Positions 1,468-64,000 of a stretch of DNA of 64,000 nucleotides are shown here, piece after piece (position 1 is the first letter of the stretch; the number at the start of each line of letters is the position of its first letter). Under the pieces are notes generated by a model. That model did not search any database. It had not been told where the DNA came from and worked only from the letters and a program-made list of their open reading frames with translations. The stretch comes from an uncultured Alphaproteobacteria bacterium. Lineage in GTDB: Bacteria; Pseudomonadota; Alphaproteobacteria; CAAHEQ01; UBA3637. A program made the translations under genes and the position numbers. The stretch is taken from NCBI GenBank assembly GCA_944393195.1, contig CALXZG010000006.1, positions 1,226-65,225 of the forward strand, read 5' to 3'.

Positions 1468-2637
1468 TTATGCTGCTTTTTGTAAACTGATTTCCGATTC
1501 CCGAATGTCAAAAAATGACGCCCGTCCCTCTAAATGACCAAAGGTTTCTGTATCCGTGCCGGTCATCCATACCTGCGTCGGCCGATCACATAAAATATCA
1601 AATAACGTATTCCGCCGCCGACTGTCCAAATGTGCCGCAACCTCATCCAACAACAACAAAGGACACATCCCTTGTTCCTGTAATTGCGCCCGCATTTCCG
1701 CTAAAATAATGGAGAGCAATAACGCCTTTTGTTCCCCCGTTGAACAAAGCGAGGCATCCCGATTTTTTTGTTTGTGAATCACTTTAAAGTCCGCCGTGTG
1801 CGGGCCCGCCAAAGATCCACCCTCCGCATAAACTTTCCGGCTACGCCGTAAGCGGTCGAAAAATTGATCTTCAACATCAACGGCAGCCTGTGTCAGCAAA
1901 GCCTGTTCAACCACGCCCGTTAAGCAAATTTCCGCCGTCGGAAACAACGGATCTTCCGATACCGATAAATACCGCGATACCCGTGATACCACGTCCAATC
2001 GCGACGCCGCCACCGCGACACCCGTTTCAACCATTTGCTGTTCTAATCCCGACAACCACGCCGTATCAAAACGCCCTTCACGCAATAAACAACTCCATTG
2101 TTTGAAAGCCGCGTTATAATCACTGAGCCGATTGGCGTGTTGTCCGTCAAAAGCCTGAACCAATCGATCCAAAAAACGGCGCCGCGCCACCGGATCCCCG
2201 CAAAACAATCTGTCTTGCGCCGGGGTCAGCCATAAACACCGCAACACCTGTCCTAAATCACTTTGCTTGGCCGCCGGTTTACCGTCAATGCGAACCTGTC
2301 GCCGTTCGGAACCGTCCACGGTTCCCGTTCCGACCTGCACAACACCGCACGGTGTTTGTACCGTTGCCGAAACACTCCAACGCGCCGGTAAAACATCAAC
2401 CCCGTCCGGAACAATGTCTTCCGCCCGTCGTGCCACATCCGCCAAGCGTGCCGACCGCAGGCCGCGCCCCGGTGTTAAAAATGAAACCGCTTCTAAAATA
2501 TTCGTCTTGCCCGCACCGTTATGCCCCGTCAGGATAACCGGCTCAAAAGACGGGTTGAGTCGCAACGTCGCACTTTCGTACGATCGAAATTGCGTCAACC
2601 GCAATTGGCAAATTCCCGTCTTTTGAATACCGTCCAT
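1468..2637 (-). CDS. recF: DNA replication and repair protein RecF
   Basis: 389 aa ORF. It has an N-terminal Walker A (GHNGAGKTNILEA), the SMC-like signature LSTGEQKALLLSIILA and Walker B LLLLDEV. It sits between dnaN and gyrB. Confidence 0.92.
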   Translation of the reverse strand: MDGIQKTGICQLRLTQFRSYESATLRLNPSFEPVILTGHNGAGKTNILEAVSFLTPGRGLRSARLADVARRAEDIVPDGVDVLPARWSVSATVQTPCGVVQVGTGTVDGSERRQVRIDGKPAAKQSDLGQVLRCLWLTPAQDRLFCGDPVARRRFLDRLVQAFDGQHANRLSDYNAAFKQWSCLLREGRFDTAWLSGLEQQMVETGVAVAASRLDVVSRVSRYLSVSEDPLFPTAEICLTGVVEQALLTQAAVDVEDQFFDRLRRSRKVYAEGGSLAGPHTADFKVIHKQKNRDASLCSTGEQKALLLSIILAEMRAQLQEQGMCPLLLLDEVAAHLDSRRRNTLFDILCDRPTQVWMTGTDTETFGHLEGRASFFDIRESEISLQKAA

Positions 2638-2638
2638 C

Positions 2639-3754
2639 CTAAACCCGCATCGGCATTAACACATATAACGCGCCGTCATCCGCCGCATCACGCAACACAA
2701 CCGGCGATACATTGTCGTTCAGGCTCATCCGAACAGAGCCGCCTTTGATTTGCCCCAAAATATCCAGCAGATAGCGATAGTTGAATCCGATTTCCAAATC
2801 ATCCCCCGTATAAACGGCATCCATTTCGTCTTCCGCCGATCCTTCATCCGCCGAAGCCGCCGTCACACGCAATAAGTTCGTTGTCAAACTTAACTTAATC
2901 CCGCGCGATTTTTCGGATACCACCGATACCCGTTCAATCACACCCGACAAAACACCGGCATCCGCTTCGGCAACCTTTTCATTTGCCGCCGGAATGACTT
3001 TTTCATACTCCGGATACGTTCCGTCAATTAAACGCGATGCCAAAACCACGTCTCCTAACGAAAAACGGATTTGATTCGCCGACAAAGAAACAGCCACATC
3101 GCCTTCAATTTCCGAAGCCAGCTTGGCAATTTCCCCGATTGTCTTACGCGGAATAATCACGCCCGGCATACCTTCTGCCCCGGCAGGTAACGCAATCTTA
3201 GCACACGCCAACCGATGTCCGTCCGTTGCCACGGCCGTCAAAGCCGCCGCTTCCCCCTGTTTTTCGTGCAGGTAAATACCGTTCAGGTTATAGCGCGTTT
3301 CTTCCATCGACACGGCAAATCCCGTTTTATTAATCAATCCCAATAAATCCGTTGATGTCATACCGAAAGAAAACGGCATATTTTCCTGTACCATTGTCGG
3401 GAAACCGTCCGCCGGCAAGACAGACAGGGAAAACTTTGCCCGACCCGACGTTAACGATAAAACGCCCGTTTCATCCGATACCTGCATCGCTACCTGAGCG
3501 CCGTCCGGCAACCGTTTCACGATGTCATACAGTTTGTGTGCCGGCACCGTCACGGATCCGGCCGTTCCAACCACCGCCGGTACGGTTTCTTGAATTTCAA
3601 TCTCATTATCCGTGGCTTTGATTAAAATCCGTCCGTCGCCCGCTTCAATCAGAACGTTCGACAAAATAGGGATTGTCTGTCGCCGTTCAACCACGCTTTG
3701 CGTATGAGCCAAAGACTTTAACAGTTGTGCTTTTTCAATCGTAATCTGCATCAT
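2639..3754 (-). CDS. dnaN: DNA polymerase III beta sliding clamp
   Basis: 371 aa with N-terminus MQITIEKAQLLKSLAHTQSVVERRQTIPILSNVLIEA and C-terminus YVLMPMRV, both typical of DnaN. The dnaN-recF-gyrB order supports the call. Confidence 0.93.
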   Translation of the reverse strand: MMQITIEKAQLLKSLAHTQSVVERRQTIPILSNVLIEAGDGRILIKATDNEIEIQETVPAVVGTAGSVTVPAHKLYDIVKRLPDGAQVAMQVSDETGVLSLTSGRAKFSLSVLPADGFPTMVQENMPFSFGMTSTDLLGLINKTGFAVSMEETRYNLNGIYLHEKQGEAAALTAVATDGHRLACAKIALPAGAEGMPGVIIPRKTIGEIAKLASEIEGDVAVSLSANQIRFSLGDVVLASRLIDGTYPEYEKVIPAANEKVAEADAGVLSGVIERVSVVSEKSRGIKLSLTTNLLRVTAASADEGSAEDEMDAVYTGDDLEIGFNYRYLLDILGQIKGGSVRMSLNDNVSPVVLRDAADDGALYVLMPMRV

Positions 3755-6333: not shown

Positions 6334-6379
6334 TTTTTTCGATTTAGTCCCTTTTATTTTCCATTTCAGAAGGTTAAAA

Positions 6380-6409
6380 AGCCCCCCGATTAAGTCGGGG
6401 GTGACGGGG
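6380..6409. repeat. REP-like palindromic element, type A (AGACCCCCGAT-N-GTCGGGGGTGACGG family)
   Basis: The sequence aagccccccgattaagtcgggggtgacgggg has a CCCCCGA/TCGGGGG stem. Near-identical copies lie at 46589-46617 and 48227-48256. Confidence 0.7.
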
Positions 6410-6649: not shown

Positions 6650-7806
6650 GTGTTGGGTATGCATCAAGAAACCGGTCGGAGTATGGTTGAAACGCTGGGC
6701 GTGTTGGCGGTTATGGGGTTATTGTCCATCGTTGGTGTTATGGCCTATCGATATGCGATTGACAGAATGAATGCAAGCGGGATTATTGATGAAGTGCGGA
6801 AACGGGCTGTGGTCGCCAGTCAGCAGCGGATTTTAGGTCAGTCAATTGATCTGTCGGAATATGGGGATAACGCAATACAGGGGCATCCGGTGACACCGGC
6901 GGATAATTATGAAGGGGATTCTTCTTTCTTTACATTAACGATATCGGGGGTCCCAAACGGGTGTGTGATCATGTCATTCGCGAAAAGATGCCTTTTGCCG
7001 TTGCGGAAAAAGTCGGCGGTGTACAGGTTGTGGATGGCATGACCTGCATCGACGGGGAAAACACGATTATTTTTGCCTTTGCGAATACATTGGACAGTAA
7101 CGCGGTACCGGCGGTGTTGGATCCGGCGTGTTGGGGTGTGACGTGTCCGGCTGGAAGCAATTGTTCGAACGGGTTTTGCCTGTGTTCATCGGGGCAGGAA
7201 GTTTGCGGAGAAATATGTTGTCCGGACGGACAGATGTGTTCAAGTCGCTTTGCCGGTTGTGTGGAGGCAACGGGGTGTTTAAGCAATGCGGATTGCAATG
7301 AGGGTGAGTATTGTTTGATCAGTGCGACCAAAGATATGTCAGAAACAACTTGCTATAAGGATTACAATGGCGTTTGCATGACTTTGACGGATGGAACGGA
7401 AACCGAAATCGAAGGTGTGGGAACGGTGTTCAGGAGCAATGTTGAAGTCGGTAGTTGGTGGGCAGCTAAAAATTGGTGCCAGGCGCATGGAAAACGTCTG
7501 ATGAGGATTAGCAATAACCGCTTGGGGTGTTATCGGGAAAGTGACGGAACGACACCTTTCGGTGAAACGACGACCGGTTATTGTTGTGCCGAAAACCAAG
7601 CCGGTTGTAGTGATGACAAAACGAAACAAAGTATTCTGATGCAAGAATTAAGGAATAAATTGAGTGACGGAACCGTTTGGTTGGAAACGGATTTCAGTTC
7701 TTGTGTTGCGTCCTATATGTTGTTATCCATTGGTGGGATCGGTAATTCATCCCGTGGCTATAACGATTATGCTCTGTGTGAGGAGACGACCGCTTCCGGT
7801 TTGTGA
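6650..7806 (+). pseudogene. Modular pilin-like / Cys-rich / lectin-like family member P1, split into two frames (6650-7042 and 6958-7806); either a pseudogene or a -1 frameshift gene
   Basis: Frame 1 encodes the leader plus GRSMVETLGVLAVMGLLSIVG and the pilin-head N-half. Frame 2 continues (R)VCDHVIREK...IIFAFANTLD, then the Cys-rich region and the WWAAKNWCQAHGKRL...YALCEE tip. The two parts are colinear with the intact paralog at 29792-31063. Relative to that paralog, one nucleotide is missing at 6952-6958 (gtcccaaacggg versus gtcccgcaacggg). Confidence 0.8.
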
Positions 7807-7999: not shown

Positions 8000-8090
8000 T
8001 GGCGGAAAGGGAGGGATTCGAACCCTCGGTACAAACAAGTTGTACAACAGATTTCGAGTCTGCCGCATTCGACCACTCTGCCACCTTTCC
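8000..8090 (-). tRNA. tRNA-Ser (anticodon CGA), class II with long variable arm, encoded CCA
   Basis: The reverse complement folds by hand: GGAAAGG-TG-...-GCAGA CTCGAAA TCTGT-long variable arm-GAGGG TTCGAAT CCCTC-CCTTTCC-G-CCA. Confidence 0.9.
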
Positions 8091-8409
8091 ATCGTGTGTG
8101 GGGTTGTGTCCGATCCGACAGACTCTCAATCTGTTGTCCGTTTGCGTTCCGCAAACACAGATTAGTCCTTCGGGCTTACGCCCTTCGTTCATCTCCGCCA
8201 AGGCGTCGATAACGAGTCTGCCGCTTATCATTCACTCTGCCACCTTTCCATCGTGTGTGGGGTTGTGTCCGATCCGACAGACTCTCAATCTGTTGTTCGT
8301 TTGCGTGCCGCAAACACAGATTAGTCCTTCGGGCTTACGCCCTTCGTTCATCTCCGCCAAGGCGTCGATAACAAGTCTGCCGCTTATCATTCACTCTGCC
8401 ACATTTTCC
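8055..8409. repeat. Tandem direct repeat, period ~159 bp, ~2.2 copies; each copy carries a degenerate 5' half of tRNA-Ser
   Basis: Unit starts fall at 8055, 8213 and 8372. The copies are near-identical. Copies 2 and 3 contain GGAAAGGTGGCAGAGTGAATGATAAGCGGCAGACTCG, compared with the tRNA 5' half GGAAAGGTGGCAGAGTGGTCGAATGCGGCAGACTCG. Confidence 0.9.
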
Positions 8410-8545: not shown

Positions 8546-10624
8546 ATGCGTTTATTCAACTTGTTTTATTGGATACGGTATTACAAAAATTGGATTATAT
8601 CCATTTTTATTTTTACGATTTTATTTTTTATTTCGGTTTTTTTAAGCTATGAATGGAGCTTGCGTTTCGCCGGATTGAATACGCCTTTGGTGGCTTTTGT
8701 GTATGAATCGTTATCGCATACGATGTTTTTGTATGGAACGGTTGTTTTGATCGGACTTATTTTGGTTGCTGCTGTGCGACTAATCGGTTTTTTTCAGGCC
8801 AAGGATGTTGAAATTCTGTTACAGGCGACGACGCGTGAATTGCGGCGTCAGAATAAAAAGCAAGGCGATGAAATTCGACAGTTATTTTCCGTATTAATGC
8901 GTGAAAATATCGGTATTTTGGTGACAAAAGGGGGAAAGGTCGTTTGGGGAAATCAGGCGATGGACATCTTTTTAAAGGGGCGTCCGAACGATTGGCGTGG
9001 TCATGTGGCGGCGGATTTGTTTGCCGAACCGAATGAGATTGCCAAAATTATCGGCAAGGGGCGGCGGTTTGCTTTTAAGAGTAAGACGTGGACGATGCAG
9101 AGTTTGTTGACGAATCGGATGGGGCGGCGGATTTTATATCAGGTTTTTTCATTCGCGTTGAAAGAGGGAAATCCGCGTCAGGGAATGGTGTGGTTGTTTC
9201 AGGATTTTTCGGCCGAAGCACGGAATATTGAGTTGGAAAAATATTATCAGACGGTATTTCGTGTCTTATCGATTTTGCATCACTTTAACGATAATGATAA
9301 CGAGTATGATTTATTGCGTCATATGTTGAATGAAGTGATCGGTATTTACGGATTAAAAACGGCCTTCTTTTTGGGGTATCGGGATAAAAAATTGCATGTC
9401 GATTTTGTTGTCGGGGACGATCATGCTTTCCCGCACGTAATGAAGGATATTGATTTGGAAGATCCGGCGTTGCAGGGTGTGGCCGTGGTTAAGGCTTTTA
9501 TGACGCTCAGGGCGGTCGGATACAGTGATATTCGCAATATTCCGTATTATCAGGAATCTTTTGCGCGAAAGAACAGAAAGCCGGTGTTATCAACGTATGC
9601 TTTTCCGATTGTGATTGAAGGAAAGATTGAAGGCGTTGTCAGTTTGTATGGGCATGCGGTCGGATTTTTCTCGGACAGTTTAATTTTCCGCTTGCAACAA
9701 TTATTATCGGAAATTTGTGAGAATATTGCGGCTATTCGACTACGGCGGCGGACTCAGGTTGCGATTCATCAATATGAAGAACGGTTGCGTTTACAGATTC
9801 ATGAGTTGGAAAGCAACAAAGAAATCATGCAGAAGCAGACGGATGAATTAAACTTAATTATTCATGATTTGGTTGAAGCGCGGGATGCAGCCGAATCGGC
9901 AAATACGGCTAAATCCGAATTTTTGGCGCACATGAGTCATGAACTGCGGACACCGTTGAATGCTATTTTGGGATTTTCGGAAGTTATGCAGAATGGTGTT
10001 TTCGGGCCGGTTCCGGACAAGTATCAGGAATATGTCCGGTATATTTATACAAGTGGGCAATATTTATTGTCTTTGATCAATGATATTTTAGATTTATCGA
10101 GTGTTGAGGGCGGACATCAAAAATTAGTCGATACACAGGTTTTGGTTGAATCTGTTTTACAGGATGCGATTGGAATTATTCGTCGATATCCGGGGGGAAG
10201 TACGCGTGAAATCACTTGGCATTCCGCAACGATGCATCCGACATTATATTTGGATGAACGGTCATTAAAGCAGATATTTTTAAATATTTTATCGAATGCC
10301 GTGAAGTTTACAACGGATGAAGGCGGTAAGATTCATATTGAAATCGGTTTGACGAAAAAGAAAGAAATGCGCATTGTGATATCGGATAACGGTATCGGTA
10401 TTCCGAAAGACAAAGCACAGCAGTTGTTTCAGCCTTTCAGTCAGGTTGAAAATGTGTTGACGCGACGGCACAAGGGAACCGGGCTTGGGTTGGTATTGAT
10501 TAAGCGTTTAATGGAATTACAGCAAGGTAAGGTTACGTTGGACAGTGAGGTTGGAAAAGGGACATCGTTGATTTTAACCTTTCCGAGAGAACGGGTTATT
10601 TTAGCAAAGAGAAGGAAAAAATAG
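8546..10624 (+). CDS. Membrane sensor histidine kinase (TM, PAS/GAF-like sensory region, HisKA, HATPase_c)
   Basis: H-box SEFLAHMSHELRTPLNAILGF, N-box LNILSNAVKFT and G-boxes DNGIGI and GTGLGL are present. I place the start at ATG 8546, preceded by a GAGGAGGA RBS. The track ORF begins at 8447. Confidence 0.85.
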   Translation: MRLFNLFYWIRYYKNWIISIFIFTILFFISVFLSYEWSLRFAGLNTPLVAFVYESLSHTMFLYGTVVLIGLILVAAVRLIGFFQAKDVEILLQATTRELRRQNKKQGDEIRQLFSVLMRENIGILVTKGGKVVWGNQAMDIFLKGRPNDWRGHVAADLFAEPNEIAKIIGKGRRFAFKSKTWTMQSLLTNRMGRRILYQVFSFALKEGNPRQGMVWLFQDFSAEARNIELEKYYQTVFRVLSILHHFNDNDNEYDLLRHMLNEVIGIYGLKTAFFLGYRDKKLHVDFVVGDDHAFPHVMKDIDLEDPALQGVAVVKAFMTLRAVGYSDIRNIPYYQESFARKNRKPVLSTYAFPIVIEGKIEGVVSLYGHAVGFFSDSLIFRLQQLLSEICENIAAIRLRRRTQVAIHQYEERLRLQIHELESNKEIMQKQTDELNLIIHDLVEARDAAESANTAKSEFLAHMSHELRTPLNAILGFSEVMQNGVFGPVPDKYQEYVRYIYTSGQYLLSLINDILDLSSVEGGHQKLVDTQVLVESVLQDAIGIIRRYPGGSTREITWHSATMHPTLYLDERSLKQIFLNILSNAVKFTTDEGGKIHIEIGLTKKKEMRIVISDNGIGIPKDKAQQLFQPFSQVENVLTRRHKGTGLGLVLIKRLMELQQGKVTLDSEVGKGTSLILTFPRERVILAKRRKK

Positions 10625-29623: not shown

Positions 29624-29655
29624 TGTAACAATTTAATGTACATTAAATTGTTACA
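29624..29655. promoter_or_regulatory. Perfect 32-bp palindrome upstream of paralog P2 (putative operator)
   Basis: TGTAACAATTTAATGT|ACATTAAATTGTTACA is exactly self-complementary. A homologous degenerate copy lies at 46318-46349 upstream of P3. Confidence 0.6.
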
Positions 29656-29741
29656 GTTTTTATAACATAATCGGGTGGGTGACGCAAGTCCTTTTTTATT
29701 AAGAATTAATCGGTTATCGATTTGTCATTTTTTGTCCAAAG

Positions 29742-29773
29742 TGTAACACGAAAGGGTACATTTTTGTGTTACA
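29742..29773. promoter_or_regulatory. Inverted repeat just 5' of the P2 RBS (operator or 5'-UTR hairpin)
   Basis: TGTAACACGAAA-gggtaca-TTTTGTGTTACA has 12-nt arms with one mismatch. It ends 7 nt before the AAGGAG RBS. The positional homolog lies at 46461-46492. Confidence 0.55.
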
Positions 29774-29791: not shown

Positions 29792-31063
29792 ATGACTGAA
29801 ATCAAAATGGAAAATGGTCGGAGTATGGTTGAAATGTTGGGCGTTCTGGCCGTGATGGGCGTGTTATCGATTGGCGGTGTGGCCGGGTATCGGTATGCGA
29901 TTGATAAAATGAATGCGAATGACATTATCAACGAAGTGCGGAAACGGGCCGTGACGGCAAGTCAACAACGCATCTTGGGTCATGATATTAATTTATCGGA
30001 ATATGGGGACAACGGGCGGATAAAGGGAATTCACGCCGTTACAGCGACAAACGATTATGCGGGGGATAAAGGGTTCTTTGCGTTGACGGTATCGGCAGTC
30101 CCGCAACGGGTGTGTGATGACATCCTGAAACAGGATTGGGCGATGCCGGTGGAAACGGCCGTCGGAGGTGTTGTGGTTGATGATGATGATACAACATGCG
30201 CCGAGGGGGAGAATGAAATGTTGTTCGCATTTGCGAATACATTGGATAATTCGTTGGTCCCTGGGGAAGGGAATGGAGAAGAGAACGGGGATGATGAAGT
30301 AGACGACGGAGATGATCCGTGGGCGCAGGAGTGTGGTACGAATGAGTATCATGACTTTAATACTGGGGAATGTGTGGTGGATAAAGATTGTGATGAGGGA
30401 GAGTTTTTATATGGAAGTCAATGTTTAACGTGTCCGGATGCGGATAATCCGGTTGCCGGATATGGTGACCGATGGAGTGGCACATGTACCAAATGTCCGG
30501 GTGCGAAAGAGGGGAGTGCCTCCCGCGGATACTATTGTGTTTATTGCCCGAACGGAGAAGCGTGCGCCGATCAATGTTGTGGCGAGGGAGAGTGGTGTCA
30601 ATATAATACATCAACGTACAGTTATGAATGTACCTCAACCAAAACGGATGGTGAATGTATGACGAATGACGATTGTGGGGATAATCAATATTGTCAATCG
30701 TATACTGGTTGCCAGATGGTGAATGGAACGTGCAAAACAATTAGTAGCACGACGGTGACGATTAACGAGAAAACATACACGGCATCGACAGATCGTATGT
30801 CGTATCATGCGGCAGAGAACTTCTGCGATGCGCTTGGGAAGCGTTTAGCACCGGTGACAGACGGGTGTACGGCGGAAGAATTGGCAGCGGTTAAAGCAAA
30901 CAGTTATTCTGGCAGTTGTTCGGGATGGGTACATACGATAGGTAAATATTATTGGACACGCACAAAATTAAGCGGGTGTGGCTCGTATTATGTAGAGAGT
31001 AGCCGTTCAGGCAAGGTCGGGTCTAACCCTTGGATCAACGTCAACGACGCCCTTTGTCGCTAA
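29792..31063 (+). CDS. Modular pilin-like protein P2: prepilin-type leader and pilin head, acidic linker, Cys-rich stalk, C-type-lectin/DUF1566-like tip
   Basis: 423 aa. MTEIKMENG|RSMVEMLGVLAVMGVLSIGG carries Gly-1 and Glu+5. RVC...TTC are 30 aa apart. About 20 Cys fall in residues 180-310. The C-terminus reads MSYHAAENFCDALGKRLAPV...YYWTRT...ALCR*. Confidence 0.8.
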   Translation: MTEIKMENGRSMVEMLGVLAVMGVLSIGGVAGYRYAIDKMNANDIINEVRKRAVTASQQRILGHDINLSEYGDNGRIKGIHAVTATNDYAGDKGFFALTVSAVPQRVCDDILKQDWAMPVETAVGGVVVDDDDTTCAEGENEMLFAFANTLDNSLVPGEGNGEENGDDEVDDGDDPWAQECGTNEYHDFNTGECVVDKDCDEGEFLYGSQCLTCPDADNPVAGYGDRWSGTCTKCPGAKEGSASRGYYCVYCPNGEACADQCCGEGEWCQYNTSTYSYECTSTKTDGECMTNDDCGDNQYCQSYTGCQMVNGTCKTISSTTVTINEKTYTASTDRMSYHAAENFCDALGKRLAPVTDGCTAEELAAVKANSYSGSCSGWVHTIGKYYWTRTKLSGCGSYYVESSRSGKVGSNPWINVNDALCR

Positions 31064-31197
31064 GGTTCCCCCTTTTGTTCCATGGAATGTCTCCCTTTAT
31101 TCCGTGGAACAACGTTAGTATATACACCAATATGGTGTATTGTCAATATCAAAACAATTTTGTTTTTCGTTTTTTGAGGGAATATGTAAAACCGTTG

Positions 31198-31226
31198 AAA
31201 GATCCTCGCTTTCGCAAGGATGACAG
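31198..31226. repeat. REP-like palindromic element, type B
   Basis: aaagatcctcgctttcgcaaggatgacag has a stem TCCTCGC/GCAAGGA with one mismatch. It belongs to the same family as 46642-46670. Confidence 0.6.
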
Positions 31227-31262
31227 AAAAAAAACAAAGGAATGCGGCGGGGAAATAAGAAA

Positions 31263-32503: not shown

Positions 32504-32616
32504 TTTTCTTTCCTTAACTGATCAGTGTTAAAAATGAAATCCTTGCGGATTTCGTTGTTGATTTTCGGTTCAAAAACCTCTTTAAACCGAACATCCCCGA
32601 CCTGCCGGCCGGAATT

Positions 32617-46273: not shown

Positions 46274-46317
46274 GTCGTTTTAGGAAGTGATTATTTTTCA
46301 ATTGGTTATTTGACGAG

Positions 46318-46349
46318 TGTAACAATTTAATGTTCATTAAAATGTTATA
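46318..46349. promoter_or_regulatory. Degenerate homolog of the 32-bp palindrome (putative operator) upstream of P3
   Basis: tgtaacaatttaatgttcattaaaatgttata aligns with 29624-29655. Both are followed by the identical 13-mer ttttataacataa. Confidence 0.55.
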
Positions 46350-46460
46350 GATTTTTATAACATAAAACTATAATCGAATACAAGCTCTTTTTTTAATATT
46401 TTGCATTTTTTTGAAATGGTTATGTAAGGCCGTCGAAAGAGGGAATTTGGGTATAAAAAG

Positions 46461-46492
46461 TATAACAAAAAAAGGAACATTTTTTTGTTATA
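46461..46492. promoter_or_regulatory. Inverted repeat just 5' of the P3 RBS
   Basis: TATAACAAAAAAA-ggaaca-TTTTTTTGTTATA has perfect 13-nt arms. It ends 7 nt before AAGGAG and is the positional homolog of 29742-29773. Confidence 0.55.
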
Positions 46493-46510
46493 GTTGAAAA
46501 GGAGCGATAA

Positions 46511-47956
46511 ATGACTGAAACAAAAAATAAAAACGGAAAAAGTGGTGTGTATCAAAATAGTGATTTAGGGGCATCGGGTGTGTGTCATAAGACCCCCGAT
46601 CAGGTCGGGGATGACGGTTTAACAGTAGGGAGTGCGTGTTCAAAGATCCCCGCTTTCGCAGGGATGACGGAAAGTAGCCGCAACGAACGGGGTCGGAGTA
46701 TGGTTGAGATGTTGGGCGTTCTGGCGGTCATGGGCGTATTATCGATTGGCGGTGTGGCCGGGTATCGGTATGCGATCGATAAAATGAATGCGAATGACAT
46801 TATCAACGAAGTGCGGAAACGGGCCGTGACGGCGAGCCAACAACGTATCTTGGGACAAAATATCAGCTTGACAGAATACGGGGATAATGGGCGGATTAAA
46901 GGAATTCATGCCGTCACAGCGACGAACAATTATGCGGGGGATAAAGGATTTTTTGCATTGACGGTGTCAAACGTGCCGCAACGGGTGTGCGATGAGATTT
47001 TGAAACAGGATTGGGCAATGCCGGTTGAAATGGCGATCGGTGGTGTTGTGGTCGATGATGATACAGCCTGCGCCGCCGGAAATAATGAAATGTTGTTTGC
47101 ATTTGCAAATACGTTGGATAACTCGTTGGTCCCAGGGGCAGGGAATGGGGATGATAACGAACCCGAACTTGAACCGTGCGCCGAGGGCGAATATCGGTTA
47201 TCGACAGGGGAGTGTGTGATGGATTCTCATCCGGAGTGTGCAGATGGGGAATTTTATAATGGATACACGAGTTCCTGTACGGTTTGTCCAACGGAGGGAA
47301 GTCCTGTTGAAAATAGTTCAGTTATAGAGGATACGTGTGAAAAATGTACGGGGGCGCAAATTGGTGGGCATAATCCGAATTATTGTGTCTATTGCCCATC
47401 CGGGATTGTGTGTGGTGACCAATGTTGTGGGGAAGGACAAATGTGTCAACGTAGTAGTTCTTATCCATATACATATACCTGTGTCTCTGCATTAGGGACA
47501 AATGAATGTTTGACGAATGATGATTGTGGGGATAATCAATATTGTAAAAATGATTATGGTTGTGAAGTAACGATTGGGACATGTACAGATATTAGTAGCA
47601 CGACGGTGACAATTAACGAAAAAACATACACAGCTTCGACGGAGGGTATATCGTATCATGCGGCGGAGAACTTCTGTGACGCGCTAGGGAAGACATTAGC
47701 ACCGGTAACGGACGGGTGTACGGCCGAAGAATTGGCAGCGGTTAAAGCAAACAGTTATTGGGGCAATTGTTCGGGATGGGCGCACACGACGGATAATGGG
47801 TATTGGACAGCAACAAAGATAAGTGGATGTGCTTCATATGAGATAAGCAGTAGCAGTTCAGGCTGGGTCGGGGCTAACTATTGGATCTACGACTACAACC
47901 TCCTCGCCCTTTGTCGCTCAGGTTCCCGCTTTTTACTATCTCCTTTAGCCATTTAA
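46511..47956 (+). CDS. Modular pilin-like protein P3 (same architecture as P2) with a 52-aa repeat-derived insertion in the leader and a 12-codon C-terminal extension
   Basis: 481 aa. The RBS and ATGACTGAAA start context are conserved with P2, as are RSMVEMLGVLAVMGVLSIGG and the head, stalk and tip. At the position of the P2 stop codon TAA, P3 reads TCA. An alternative in-frame start lies at 46664 (MTESSRNERG|RSMVE). Confidence 0.8.
   Translation: MTETKNKNGKSGVYQNSDLGASGVCHKTPDQVGDDGLTVGSACSKIPAFAGMTESSRNERGRSMVEMLGVLAVMGVLSIGGVAGYRYAIDKMNANDIINEVRKRAVTASQQRILGQNISLTEYGDNGRIKGIHAVTATNNYAGDKGFFALTVSNVPQRVCDEILKQDWAMPVEMAIGGVVVDDDTACAAGNNEMLFAFANTLDNSLVPGAGNGDDNEPELEPCAEGEYRLSTGECVMDSHPECADGEFYNGYTSSCTVCPTEGSPVENSSVIEDTCEKCTGAQIGGHNPNYCVYCPSGIVCGDQCCGEGQMCQRSSSYPYTYTCVSALGTNECLTNDDCGDNQYCKNDYGCEVTIGTCTDISSTTVTINEKTYTASTEGISYHAAENFCDALGKTLAPVTDGCTAEELAAVKANSYWGNCSGWAHTTDNGYWTATKISGCASYEISSSSSGWVGANYWIYDYNLLALCRSGSRFLLSPLAI
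46589..46617. repeat. REP-like element type A inside the P3 5' coding region
   Basis: aagacccccgatcaggtcggggatgacgg is translated in frame as KTPDQVGDDG. Confidence 0.7.
46642..46670. repeat. REP-like element type B inside the P3 5' coding region
   Basis: aaagatccccgctttcgcagggatgacgg is translated in frame as KIPAFAGMT. Confidence 0.7.
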
Positions 47957-48102: not shown

Positions 48103-48226
48103 CGTAAATCAAAAGTTGCCGGTGGCAAGTTTTGATGCGCAAAGCAATGAAACACCGCGCGCCAAGGCAGCGGAAGTCGCCGCCGGCAAGCGGATGTTGG
48201 AATTGAAAAGGGGGTAAGATGGTCAT

Positions 48227-48256
48227 GAGACCCCCGATCAGGTCGGGGGTGACGGG
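48227..48256. repeat. REP-like element type A
   Basis: gagacccccgatcaggtcgggggtgacggg is near-identical to 46589-46617. Confidence 0.7.
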
Positions 48257-48323
48257 ATTATAATGGAGCGGGAATGACAGAAAATAATAAGGGATGACGT
48301 AGGAGAGGCAGAGCGGGGTGCTT

Positions 48324-48352
48324 AAAGATCCCCGCCTGCGCGGGGAGGACGG
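48324..48352. repeat. REP-like element type B
   Basis: aaagatccccgcctgcgcggggaggacgg is preceded by gagcggggtgctt. Confidence 0.65.
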
Positions 48353-48410
48353 AAAAAAGCAAGGATGACGTAGAATTATAATCGATGACGTATTTTTAGG
48401 CAGAGAAGTG

Positions 48411-63943: not shown

Positions 63944-64000
63944 TTAGCGACAAAGGGCGAGGCTGCCGTTGCCGTGGGTCCAAAAGTCAGACCCGACCGC
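63944..64000 (-). CDS. C-terminal 18 codons plus stop of a fourth modular pilin-like/lectin-like paralog (P4); the rest lies outside the window
   Basis: The reverse complement reads GCG GTC GGG TCT GAC TTT TGG ACC CAC GGC AAC GGC AGC CTC GCC CTT TGT CGC TAA, giving AVGSDFWTHGNGSLALCR*. It is colinear with the P2 and P3 ends, and the last 15 nt plus the following GGTT are identical to P2. Confidence 0.75.
   Translation of the reverse strand, partial: AVGSDFWTHGNGSLALCR

Follow-up and report, generated by a model that had tools for sequence, protein, structure and literature searches.

What is served by a family of large proteins that open like pilins, close with a lectin-like domain, and are encoded singly among housekeeping genes? 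The question is raised by a 64,000-nucleotide stretch of an uncultured Alphaproteobacteria bacterium (assembly GCA_944393195.1, contig CALXZG010000006.1; hereafter the window), in which an original prediction had described a four-copy gene family typified by a 423-residue open reading frame (ORF) at 29792..31063 on the plus strand (copy 1). The homology and predicted structure assembled here indicate that the products of these genes are probably modular minor pilins, carried at the tip of a type IVb pilus. Three readable paralogs and the 3' end of a fourth copy lie in the window, and they share one layout, in which a leader ending in Gly precedes RSMVEMLG and is followed by a pilin head, an acidic linker, a Cys-rich stalk, and a C-terminal alpha/beta domain. 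The surrounding genes are of the housekeeping type (recF, dnaN, dnaA, tuf, metG, ftsY, groEL, lepA, and rnr).

The N-terminus provides the first indication. Copy 1 is an intact gene with an AAGGAG ribosome-binding site 7 nt upstream, and its product begins with the leader peptide MTEIKMENG (29792..29818, +), which ends in Gly at -1 and carries Glu at -3. This short polar leader, together with a Glu at +5 and about 20 hydrophobic residues downstream, constitutes a class III signal as originally claimed, with both Gly(-1) and Glu(+5) invariant across 19 diverse sequences (G2 and E7 of alignment A4). The motif G-x4-E-x2-G-x-L is present in 235 of 269 family proteins, and among these 235 the residue at +1 is Arg in 232 and the residue at -3 is Glu in 217, giving the family signature E-x-G↓R-S-M-V-E-M-L-G-V-L-A-I-(I or M)-G-V-L-S, in which the arrow marks the point after Gly where the leader would be cleaved. 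The Arg at +1 had been pointed out originally as an atypical feature; its presence is upheld, whereas its standing as an oddity is not, as the sequences place it as a trait of the whole family. Pilins of the N_methyl type usually carry Phe or Met at this position, and it is because of the Arg that the N_methyl model misses the family.

Downstream of the leader, residues 10-156 (29819..30259, +) are predicted to form a pilin module. In the full-length AlphaFold2 (AF2) model of copy 1, built from 121 sequences at a predicted local distance difference test score (pLDDT) of 83.6, this module displays the long alpha-helix at the N-terminus on an antiparallel beta-sheet that characterizes the pilin fold, with a 50-residue helix alpha1 (residues 12-61) bearing Glu(+5), four strands (81-86, 95-104, 121-124, and 140-148), and a C108/C136 pair; pLDDT exceeds 90 over residues 40 to 150. 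Conservation among the 121 sequences is at least 90% for C108, C136, F145, F147, N149, and L151. The top folds retrieved from the PDB by Foldseek are the type IVb pilins CofA (9iuf) and TcpA (8uhf), at E 4e-3, probability 1.0, and a target template modelling (TM) score of ~0.45, and the top seven matches are all CofA or TcpA pilins (probability 0.99-1.0). Searches of the PDB by sequence gave just Meckelin (E = 3.1) when phmmer was run with a window protein, and TcpA as top match when a profile was used, at an E of 0.13 that is not significant by itself. Pfam and NCBIfam returned nothing above threshold for any copy in the window, and the same held for the N_methyl, Lectin_C, and DUF1566 profiles by which the original prediction had proposed to check itself.

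The connection to a filament is drawn from relatives outside the window. A scan of JGI/ENA metagenome contigs with a profile of the N-terminal pilin module (N-module) yielded 78 loci, and screening all loci for motifs revealed those of secretion ATPases and A24 peptidases in four. On contigs L052, L097, and L099, an operon encodes a TcpQ-like protein, a secretin, PAP_PilO, the product of an unknown gene, a T2SSE ATPase, T2SSF, and PilS/Bundlin-type pilins; the same operon occurs on contigs L101-L114 from metagenome-assembled genomes (MAGs), followed there by a 320-residue PilT-like T2SSE ATPase, and operon and PilT-like ATPase are syntenic in the MAGs GCA_051885595.1, GCA_944391485.1, GCA_045590955.1, and GCA_977050355.1. 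The operon ATPase has 3,392 homologs at E <= 1e-30, and the close homologs to which a source attaches a name are one "Alphaproteobacteria bacterium" MAG, the sole class-level name, and one "Pseudomonadota bacterium." Each operon encodes one or two pilins of 190-210 residues that resemble a major subunit, and six operon-encoded pilins match PilS or Bundlin, with best E-values between 9.1e-5 and 3.9e-17. The PilS/Bundlin-type major pilins of the related MAGs have the same N-terminus as the window family (G↓RSMVEMLGVLAIIGVLS), and the pilins of L052, L097, and L101 begin ...G↓RSMVEMLGVLAIIGVLSVGGIAGY, with starts that read ...SG↓RSMVEMLGVLAIIGVLSVAGIAGY in the L052 and L097 operons and NG↓RSMVEMLGVLAIIGVLSVGGIAGYSKAM in L101 pilins of 204 and 209 residues. 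Homology to these bona fide type IVb pilins extends beyond the hydrophobic alpha1N, as hhalign of the N-module (A4) against alignment A6, comprising the six operon-encoded PilS/Bundlin pilins and three short pilins of locus L093, gave a probability of 99.6% and an E of 1.3e-23 over 123 columns, which extend well beyond the hydrophobic helix and take in the head motif FF.L.V...P..VC...L..DW. With the AF2 fold and the CofA/TcpA matches, this result substantiates the complete pilin head of the original prediction; its further suggestion of display on a type IV filament is likewise strengthened, as the same N-terminus is tied, in related Alphaproteobacteria MAGs, to a complete type IVb machinery.

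Several features of these related loci deserve mention in their own right. At L093, three tandem short pilins with the same N-terminus lie beside a Peptidase_A24 gene fragment (Pfam E 1.3e-16); they score 17.6-17.7 bits with N_methyl, below the cut-off, and match neither PilS nor Bundlin. Directly upstream of these G↓RSMVEMLG pilins, and likewise near the Peptidase_A24 gene, is a partial Cys-rich ORF of 603 residues (L093 1-1812) without a Pfam family, which contains multiple C-type-lectin-like domains (CTLDs), at least three repeats ending "...YYALC" or "HAFC," the motif that also closes the window tip, and a Ser/Gly-rich tail. In three of the type IVb operon contexts examined, a membrane-bound Sulfatase-family (PF00884) gene stands beside the pilin genes, at L101 15426-16856(-) (L101/L102), L052 10873-12708, and L097 7964-9808; the Neisseria pilin phospho-form transferase PptA belongs to this family, and the pilins may therefore be post-translationally modified. 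Small TrbC-like (PF04956) genes and a protein of ~900-1000 residues without a Pfam match are conserved immediately upstream of the operon (L101-L108, ~2000-2870(-)) in the MAGs whose flank was fetched, and this gives a hint of a connection to a conjugation-type system, as for the R64 thin pilus.

The part of the protein that distinguishes it from an ordinary pilin follows the head. An acidic, Gly-containing linker of low pLDDT (residues 157-178; 30260..30325, +), of which residues 157-173 fall below a pLDDT of 50 and are predicted to be disordered, leads into a stalk (residues 179-316; 30326..30739, +) that appears as stacked beta-hairpins in a separate AF2 model of residues 172-423 (pLDDT 89, predicted TM score 0.84). 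The stalk holds 19 Cys, against 2 in the head and 5 in the tip. The final residues, 317-423, together with the stop codon (30740..31063, +), make up a compact domain that was assigned to the C-type lectin fold from dozens of CTLD matches, obtained with both the full-length and the C-terminal models and in both PDB and BFVD, at probabilities of 0.9-0.99, target TM scores of 0.45-0.53, and modest E-values of 0.01-0.1. The PDB matches (probability 0.93-0.99, target TM about 0.42-0.53) are headed by Bdellovibrio Bd2740 (8oks) and include PLA2R CTLD7, CLEC9A, MBP-C, LOX-1, and the C-terminal domain of Legionella Lcl (8q4e; rank 24, probability 0.93, target TM 0.42), the resemblance to the latter being at the level of fold alone; viral C-type lectins are among the BFVD matches. 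The original likening of the tip to CLec and DUF1566 domains thus stands for the fold, with Lcl among the matches, but not for the sequence, as neither Lectin_C nor DUF1566 of Pfam matched a window protein at E <= 1. The motifs EPN, QPD, and WND are absent from residues 317-423 when the translation is read directly, and the tip is accordingly a compact CTLD that is probably Ca-independent.

Compact bacterial C-type lectin folds at the ends of adhesive fibres are already exemplified by Bd2740 and Lcl, neither of which matches the window tip at the sequence level. Their carriers differ, Lcl being borne on a collagen-like protein. Bd2740 is a fibre-tip adhesin domain with a trimeric, Ca-free C-type lectin fold, so that it lacks a Ca2+ site just as the window tip lacks the corresponding motifs, and it is mounted on a trimeric coiled fibre where the window proteins use a pilin (PMC10769870).

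Comparison of the copies shows a constant pilin base and variable distal modules. Copy 1 is 72% identical to copy 2 (46511..47956, +; 481 residues as called), and the module values are 90% for the leader with alpha1N, 90% for the pilin head, 54% for the linker, 50% for the Cys stalk, and 77% for the tip, so that the stalk is the most divergent module, as had been stated originally. Copy 2 opens with a ribosome-binding site and a ATGACTGAA start as in copy 1, and its leader-coding part then contains an in-frame insertion of ~170 nt (about 46520-46690) with two short repeat modules, which results in a 62-residue leader ("...IPAFAGMTE..."); an alternative start at 46664 would yield MTESSRNERG↓RSMVE. 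Leader insertions resembling this one are found in the homologs P0003, P0025, P0069, P0100, and P0112. Copy 3 (6650..7806, +) is spread over two frames (6650-7042 and 6961-7806), the halves of which are 56% and 36% identical to copy 1; its stalk is shorter and its tip a longer variant. Its frame break corresponds to one G missing from a G-run beside (GT)3 at ~6957-6962, in "aacggg-tgtgtgatc," and could reflect a pseudogene, slipped-strand phase variation, or an assembly error. The fourth copy enters the window only with its final 18 codons and stop (63944..64000, -) and continues beyond the edge; this tail matches the 3' ends of copies 1 and 2 by blastn, and its C-terminus, ...AVGSDFWTHGNGSLALCR followed by the stop, is identical to that of a full-length homolog. 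All four copies were thus recovered where the original prediction had located them, and a scan of the window for the N-terminal motif found three N-termini only.

The wider family is very large. The copy 1 protein has 413 homologs, nearly all of them unnamed metagenome proteins, and many share only the first ~150 residues (60-90% identity) and differ in their C-termini, some of which are EGF/teneurin-like; paralogs match EGF_TEN, EGF_Teneurin, and EGF_2. The N-module profile retrieved 5,871 cluster representatives (50% identity clustering) at E <= 1e-3, of which 3,914 reach E <= 1e-10, and the representatives span 100 to 930 residues, including pilin-only proteins of 159-200 residues. Close modular relatives were located in four uncultured Alphaproteobacteria MAGs by an alignment-based scan, single-sequence patterns having yielded none, with one to seven loci in each and seven in the best-covered MAG; the paralog neighbourhoods examined outside the window likewise consist of housekeeping genes. 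A plasmid origin of the R64 kind was also considered and dropped, as tblastn of the N-module against the 72,556 plasmids of PLSDB found nothing. A literature search for "GRSMVE" returned no papers.

Taken together, these data allow a model to be proposed for the window proteins as modular tip pilins. The hydrophobic alpha1N would insert the protein into the inner membrane, where a prepilin (A24) peptidase would remove the short E-x-G leader and leave Arg at +1 and Glu at +5. The pilin module would then dock into a filament of PilS/bundlin-like major pilins with a near-identical alpha1N (RSMVEMLGVLAIIGVLSVGGIAGY). The pilus tip would be the likeliest position for so bulky a C-terminus, consisting of flexible acidic linker, disulfide-rich stalk, and CTLD, both because the protein is large and by analogy with CofB and TcpB, and at the tip the lectin-like domain could bind a ligand, for instance a glycan or a protein on the surface of a host or microbe. 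Scattered paralogs with a pilin module that is ~90% constant and with varied stalks (~50%) and tips might then serve as exchangeable tips for one machinery. The related type IVb operons contain no gene for a large minor pilin, so that the tip pilin that initiates assembly may also come from these paralogs.

The closest precedents for such a model are TcpB and its homolog CofB (PMC5207764). TcpB is present at about one per pilus, initiates assembly, and uses Glu5 (PMC5207764), and CofB, which comprises a pilin module, a beta-repeat, and a beta-sandwich, forms a trimer for which a position at the tip has been proposed (PMC8179133); for both, a position at the pilus tip, initiation of assembly, and binding have been put forward (PMC5207764; PMC8179133). 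The likeness lies in the size of the protein (TcpB also has 423 residues), the type IVb module with Glu5, the flexible linker, and the extra C-terminal domains (PMC5207764; PMC8179133), a layout that the AF2 model of copy 1 reproduces. The differences are that the genes for CofB and TcpB are present once, within the pilus operon, whereas the window genes are scattered paralogs among housekeeping genes, and that the beta-repeat and beta-sandwich of CofB (PMC8179133) are replaced by a disulfide-rich stalk and a CTLD. No sequence similarity between CofB or TcpB and the window proteins was detectable by phmmer or by the profile against PDB.

Several observations weigh against this model. The modular genes lie outside any pilus operon, unlike tcpB, cofB, and pilV, and are scattered in several copies per genome in place of a single gene in the operon. 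The window contains no pilus, type II secretion system (T2SS), Tad, or peptidase gene, in agreement with the original prediction as regards the first three; neither machinery nor peptidase was found in the ~340 kb around 20 other family members, and no machinery stands beside the modular paralogs of L001-L022 or L115-L118. The operon was encountered in no MAG with close modular paralogs, as the look-ups of ATPase and of paralogs led to different MAGs. At the level of the protein, the Foldseek E-values are modest (4e-3 to 1e-2, target TM ~0.45-0.5); N_methyl (PF07963 / IPR012902) stays below its cut-off, with a match to copy 2 alone (E = 0.13, 12.4 vs 21.2 bits); and the PilS (PF08805) and Bundlin (PF05307) hidden Markov models have no match to window proteins at E <= 1. 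We know of no characterised pilin with Arg at +1, and the cleavage site is assumed. Finally, the tip position, the oligomeric state, and the ligand are pure inference.

An extended form of the model is conceivable but doubtful. It would hold that gut Alphaproteobacteria possess a type IVb pilus whose whole pilin set uses the noncanonical, unannotated E-x-G↓R-S-M-V-E signal and has Arg as the mature N-terminus, and that a genome-wide library of many interchangeable modular tip pilins, each with a palindrome-flanked promoter of its own, enables cells to switch tips. If true, the library would do with paralogs what the shufflon does for R64, and would serve to recognize a host or partner in the gut, although there is only a minority chance that it amounts to a distinct strategy. 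PilV of R64/ColIb-P9 is a large type IVb (PilS-family) minor pilin with a constant N-terminal part and a variable C-terminal part that changes binding specificity, and its variants arise by site-specific DNA inversion (the shufflon) at a single locus. The resemblance extends to the related operons, which contain the R64-type components PAP_PilO and PilS-family pilins; the difference is that variation in the window is stored in separate paralogous genes.

An unlikely alternative would place the proteins within the filament body, the paralogs polymerising along the shaft or being sprinkled through it, with many stalk-lectin side arms that provide antigenic or adhesive variation of the whole fibre. 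Such an arrangement is in keeping with the invariant Glu(+5), as Glu5 of TcpB is required for incorporation below the tip and not for tip initiation (PMC5207764), and with a pilin module that is a complete head conserved at 90% between copies; the linker is long and predicted to be disordered, and a filament-body position is possible with a flexible linker, as noted by Raynaud et al. (PMC8179133). However, a secretin could hardly let through subunits that each bear a 250-residue appendage, large type IVb pilins that are known occur at about one per pilus, and the operons already encode one or two PilS/Bundlin-type pilins with the look of a major subunit.

The absence of machinery beside the modular paralogs examined speaks for a different alternative, in which no filament is formed and the N-terminus acts as an uncleaved signal-anchor holding an ectodomain, Cys-rich and lectin-like, at the periplasmic side of the inner membrane, or in which the protein is a T2SS-like pseudopilin that stays periplasmic. 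The sub-threshold N_methyl scores, the atypical Arg at +1, and a JGI record that labels one homolog "T2SS pseudopilin PulG" point in the same direction. Nevertheless this alternative appears improbable, as a Glu five residues into a membrane helix, with an invariant preceding Gly, is a pilin hallmark that is kept strictly across the 19 diverse sequences, the head is homologous to pilins in operons with a secretin, a TcpQ-like protein, and the 320-residue PilT-like T2SSE ATPase, and a lectin-tipped stalk confined to the periplasm makes little sense.

Targets of diversity-generating retroelements (DGRs) typically use the CTLD fold and vary at the extreme C-terminus. That the lectin-like tip is such a variable protein is very improbable, for although its fold is that used by Mtd, a comparison also drawn in the Bd2740 paper (PMC10769870), and ~25 residues before ALCR differ strongly among the paralogs, the differences include indels, which DGRs do not make, and the window contains neither a template repeat for the 3' end of any gene (blastn finds paralogs only) nor a reverse-transcriptase YxDD ORF.

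If the window proteins are read as modular tip pilins, it is useful to separate what is already known from what is new. The original prediction held modular pilins to be rare and mainly Gram-positive, a view that is outdated, as more than 1,200 such proteins in 264 architectures have been described from monoderms and diderms, with CofB cited as a large modular type IVb minor pilin (PMC8179133); that modular pilins have a wide distribution, and that type IVb pili carry large tip pilins such as CofB and TcpB and a variable adhesin pilin, PilV of R64, is therefore established. In Streptococcus sanguinis, PilB (vWA) and PilC (ConA-like lectin) follow the same design of a small pilin module joined by a short linker to an adhesive module (PMC8179133), although that pilus belongs to a monoderm, whereas the window lineage is type IVb and its modules are different. 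The modular pilins of S. sanguinis and InterPro are found by the IPR012902/N_methyl signature, which the window family misses, so that it would be absent from that census. What is new is the sequence family itself, which carries no annotation, is very large, and escapes the N_methyl signature, together with the combination of a disulfide-rich stalk and a compact CTLD, the host lineage of uncultured gut Alphaproteobacteria, and the presence of several scattered paralogs in place of one operon gene. A structure and a likely role are thereby provided for a family of 5,871 clusters from uncultured gut and rumen-type Alphaproteobacteria, of which the window members have no significant Pfam or NCBIfam match and few relatives bear a source name, and pilin censuses based on signatures overlook whole lineages. 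In addition, type IVb pili, which have been studied mainly in enteric pathogens and conjugative plasmids, are pointed to as an adhesion device of commensal gut bacteria, and the tip domains, being small, disulfide-stabilised, and confidently predicted, are suited to glycan-array or binding screens.

The DNA around the genes has features of its own. Upstream of copy 1 are two palindromes of the form TGTAACA-N18-TGTTACA (29624-29655 and 29742-29773; region 29624..29773, +), where none would be expected by chance, the second of which stops 8 nt before the ribosome-binding site. Copy 2 has degenerate palindromes upstream (~46309-46350 and ~46461-46494), as has an ortholog on L017 (~9851-9883 and ~9960-9985), and on sequence grounds it is possible that they represent a shared operator or 5' untranslated region hairpin of the paralog family. 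As an operator for the family as a whole the palindrome was rejected, as there is no exact match in 114 other loci and degenerate versions occur only near orthologs.

Short repeat modules of ~35 nt (e.g., CCCGCTTTCGCAGGGATGAC), resembling repetitive extragenic palindromic (REP) sequences or miniature inverted-repeat transposable elements (MITEs), occur dispersed through the intergenic DNA near the pilin paralogs, with pieces at 48222-48255, 48318-48355, 31194-31229, 6379-6407, and 32582-32604, and also in the copy 2 insertion (46520-46690). By comparison with the Rickettsia palindromic elements that insert in-frame, the cleavable leader seems to tolerate insertions. At its other end, copy 2 lacks the stop found after ...ALCR in other copies and runs for 12 extra codons (SGSRFLLSPLAI) into repeat-containing DNA (47906-47956). 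Just downstream of copy 3, tRNA-Ser(cga) (8000-8090, -) overlaps a 159-bp tandem repeat of 2.2 copies (8055-8406, 95% match), which duplicates part of the tRNA-Ser region and may be an integration or excision scar.

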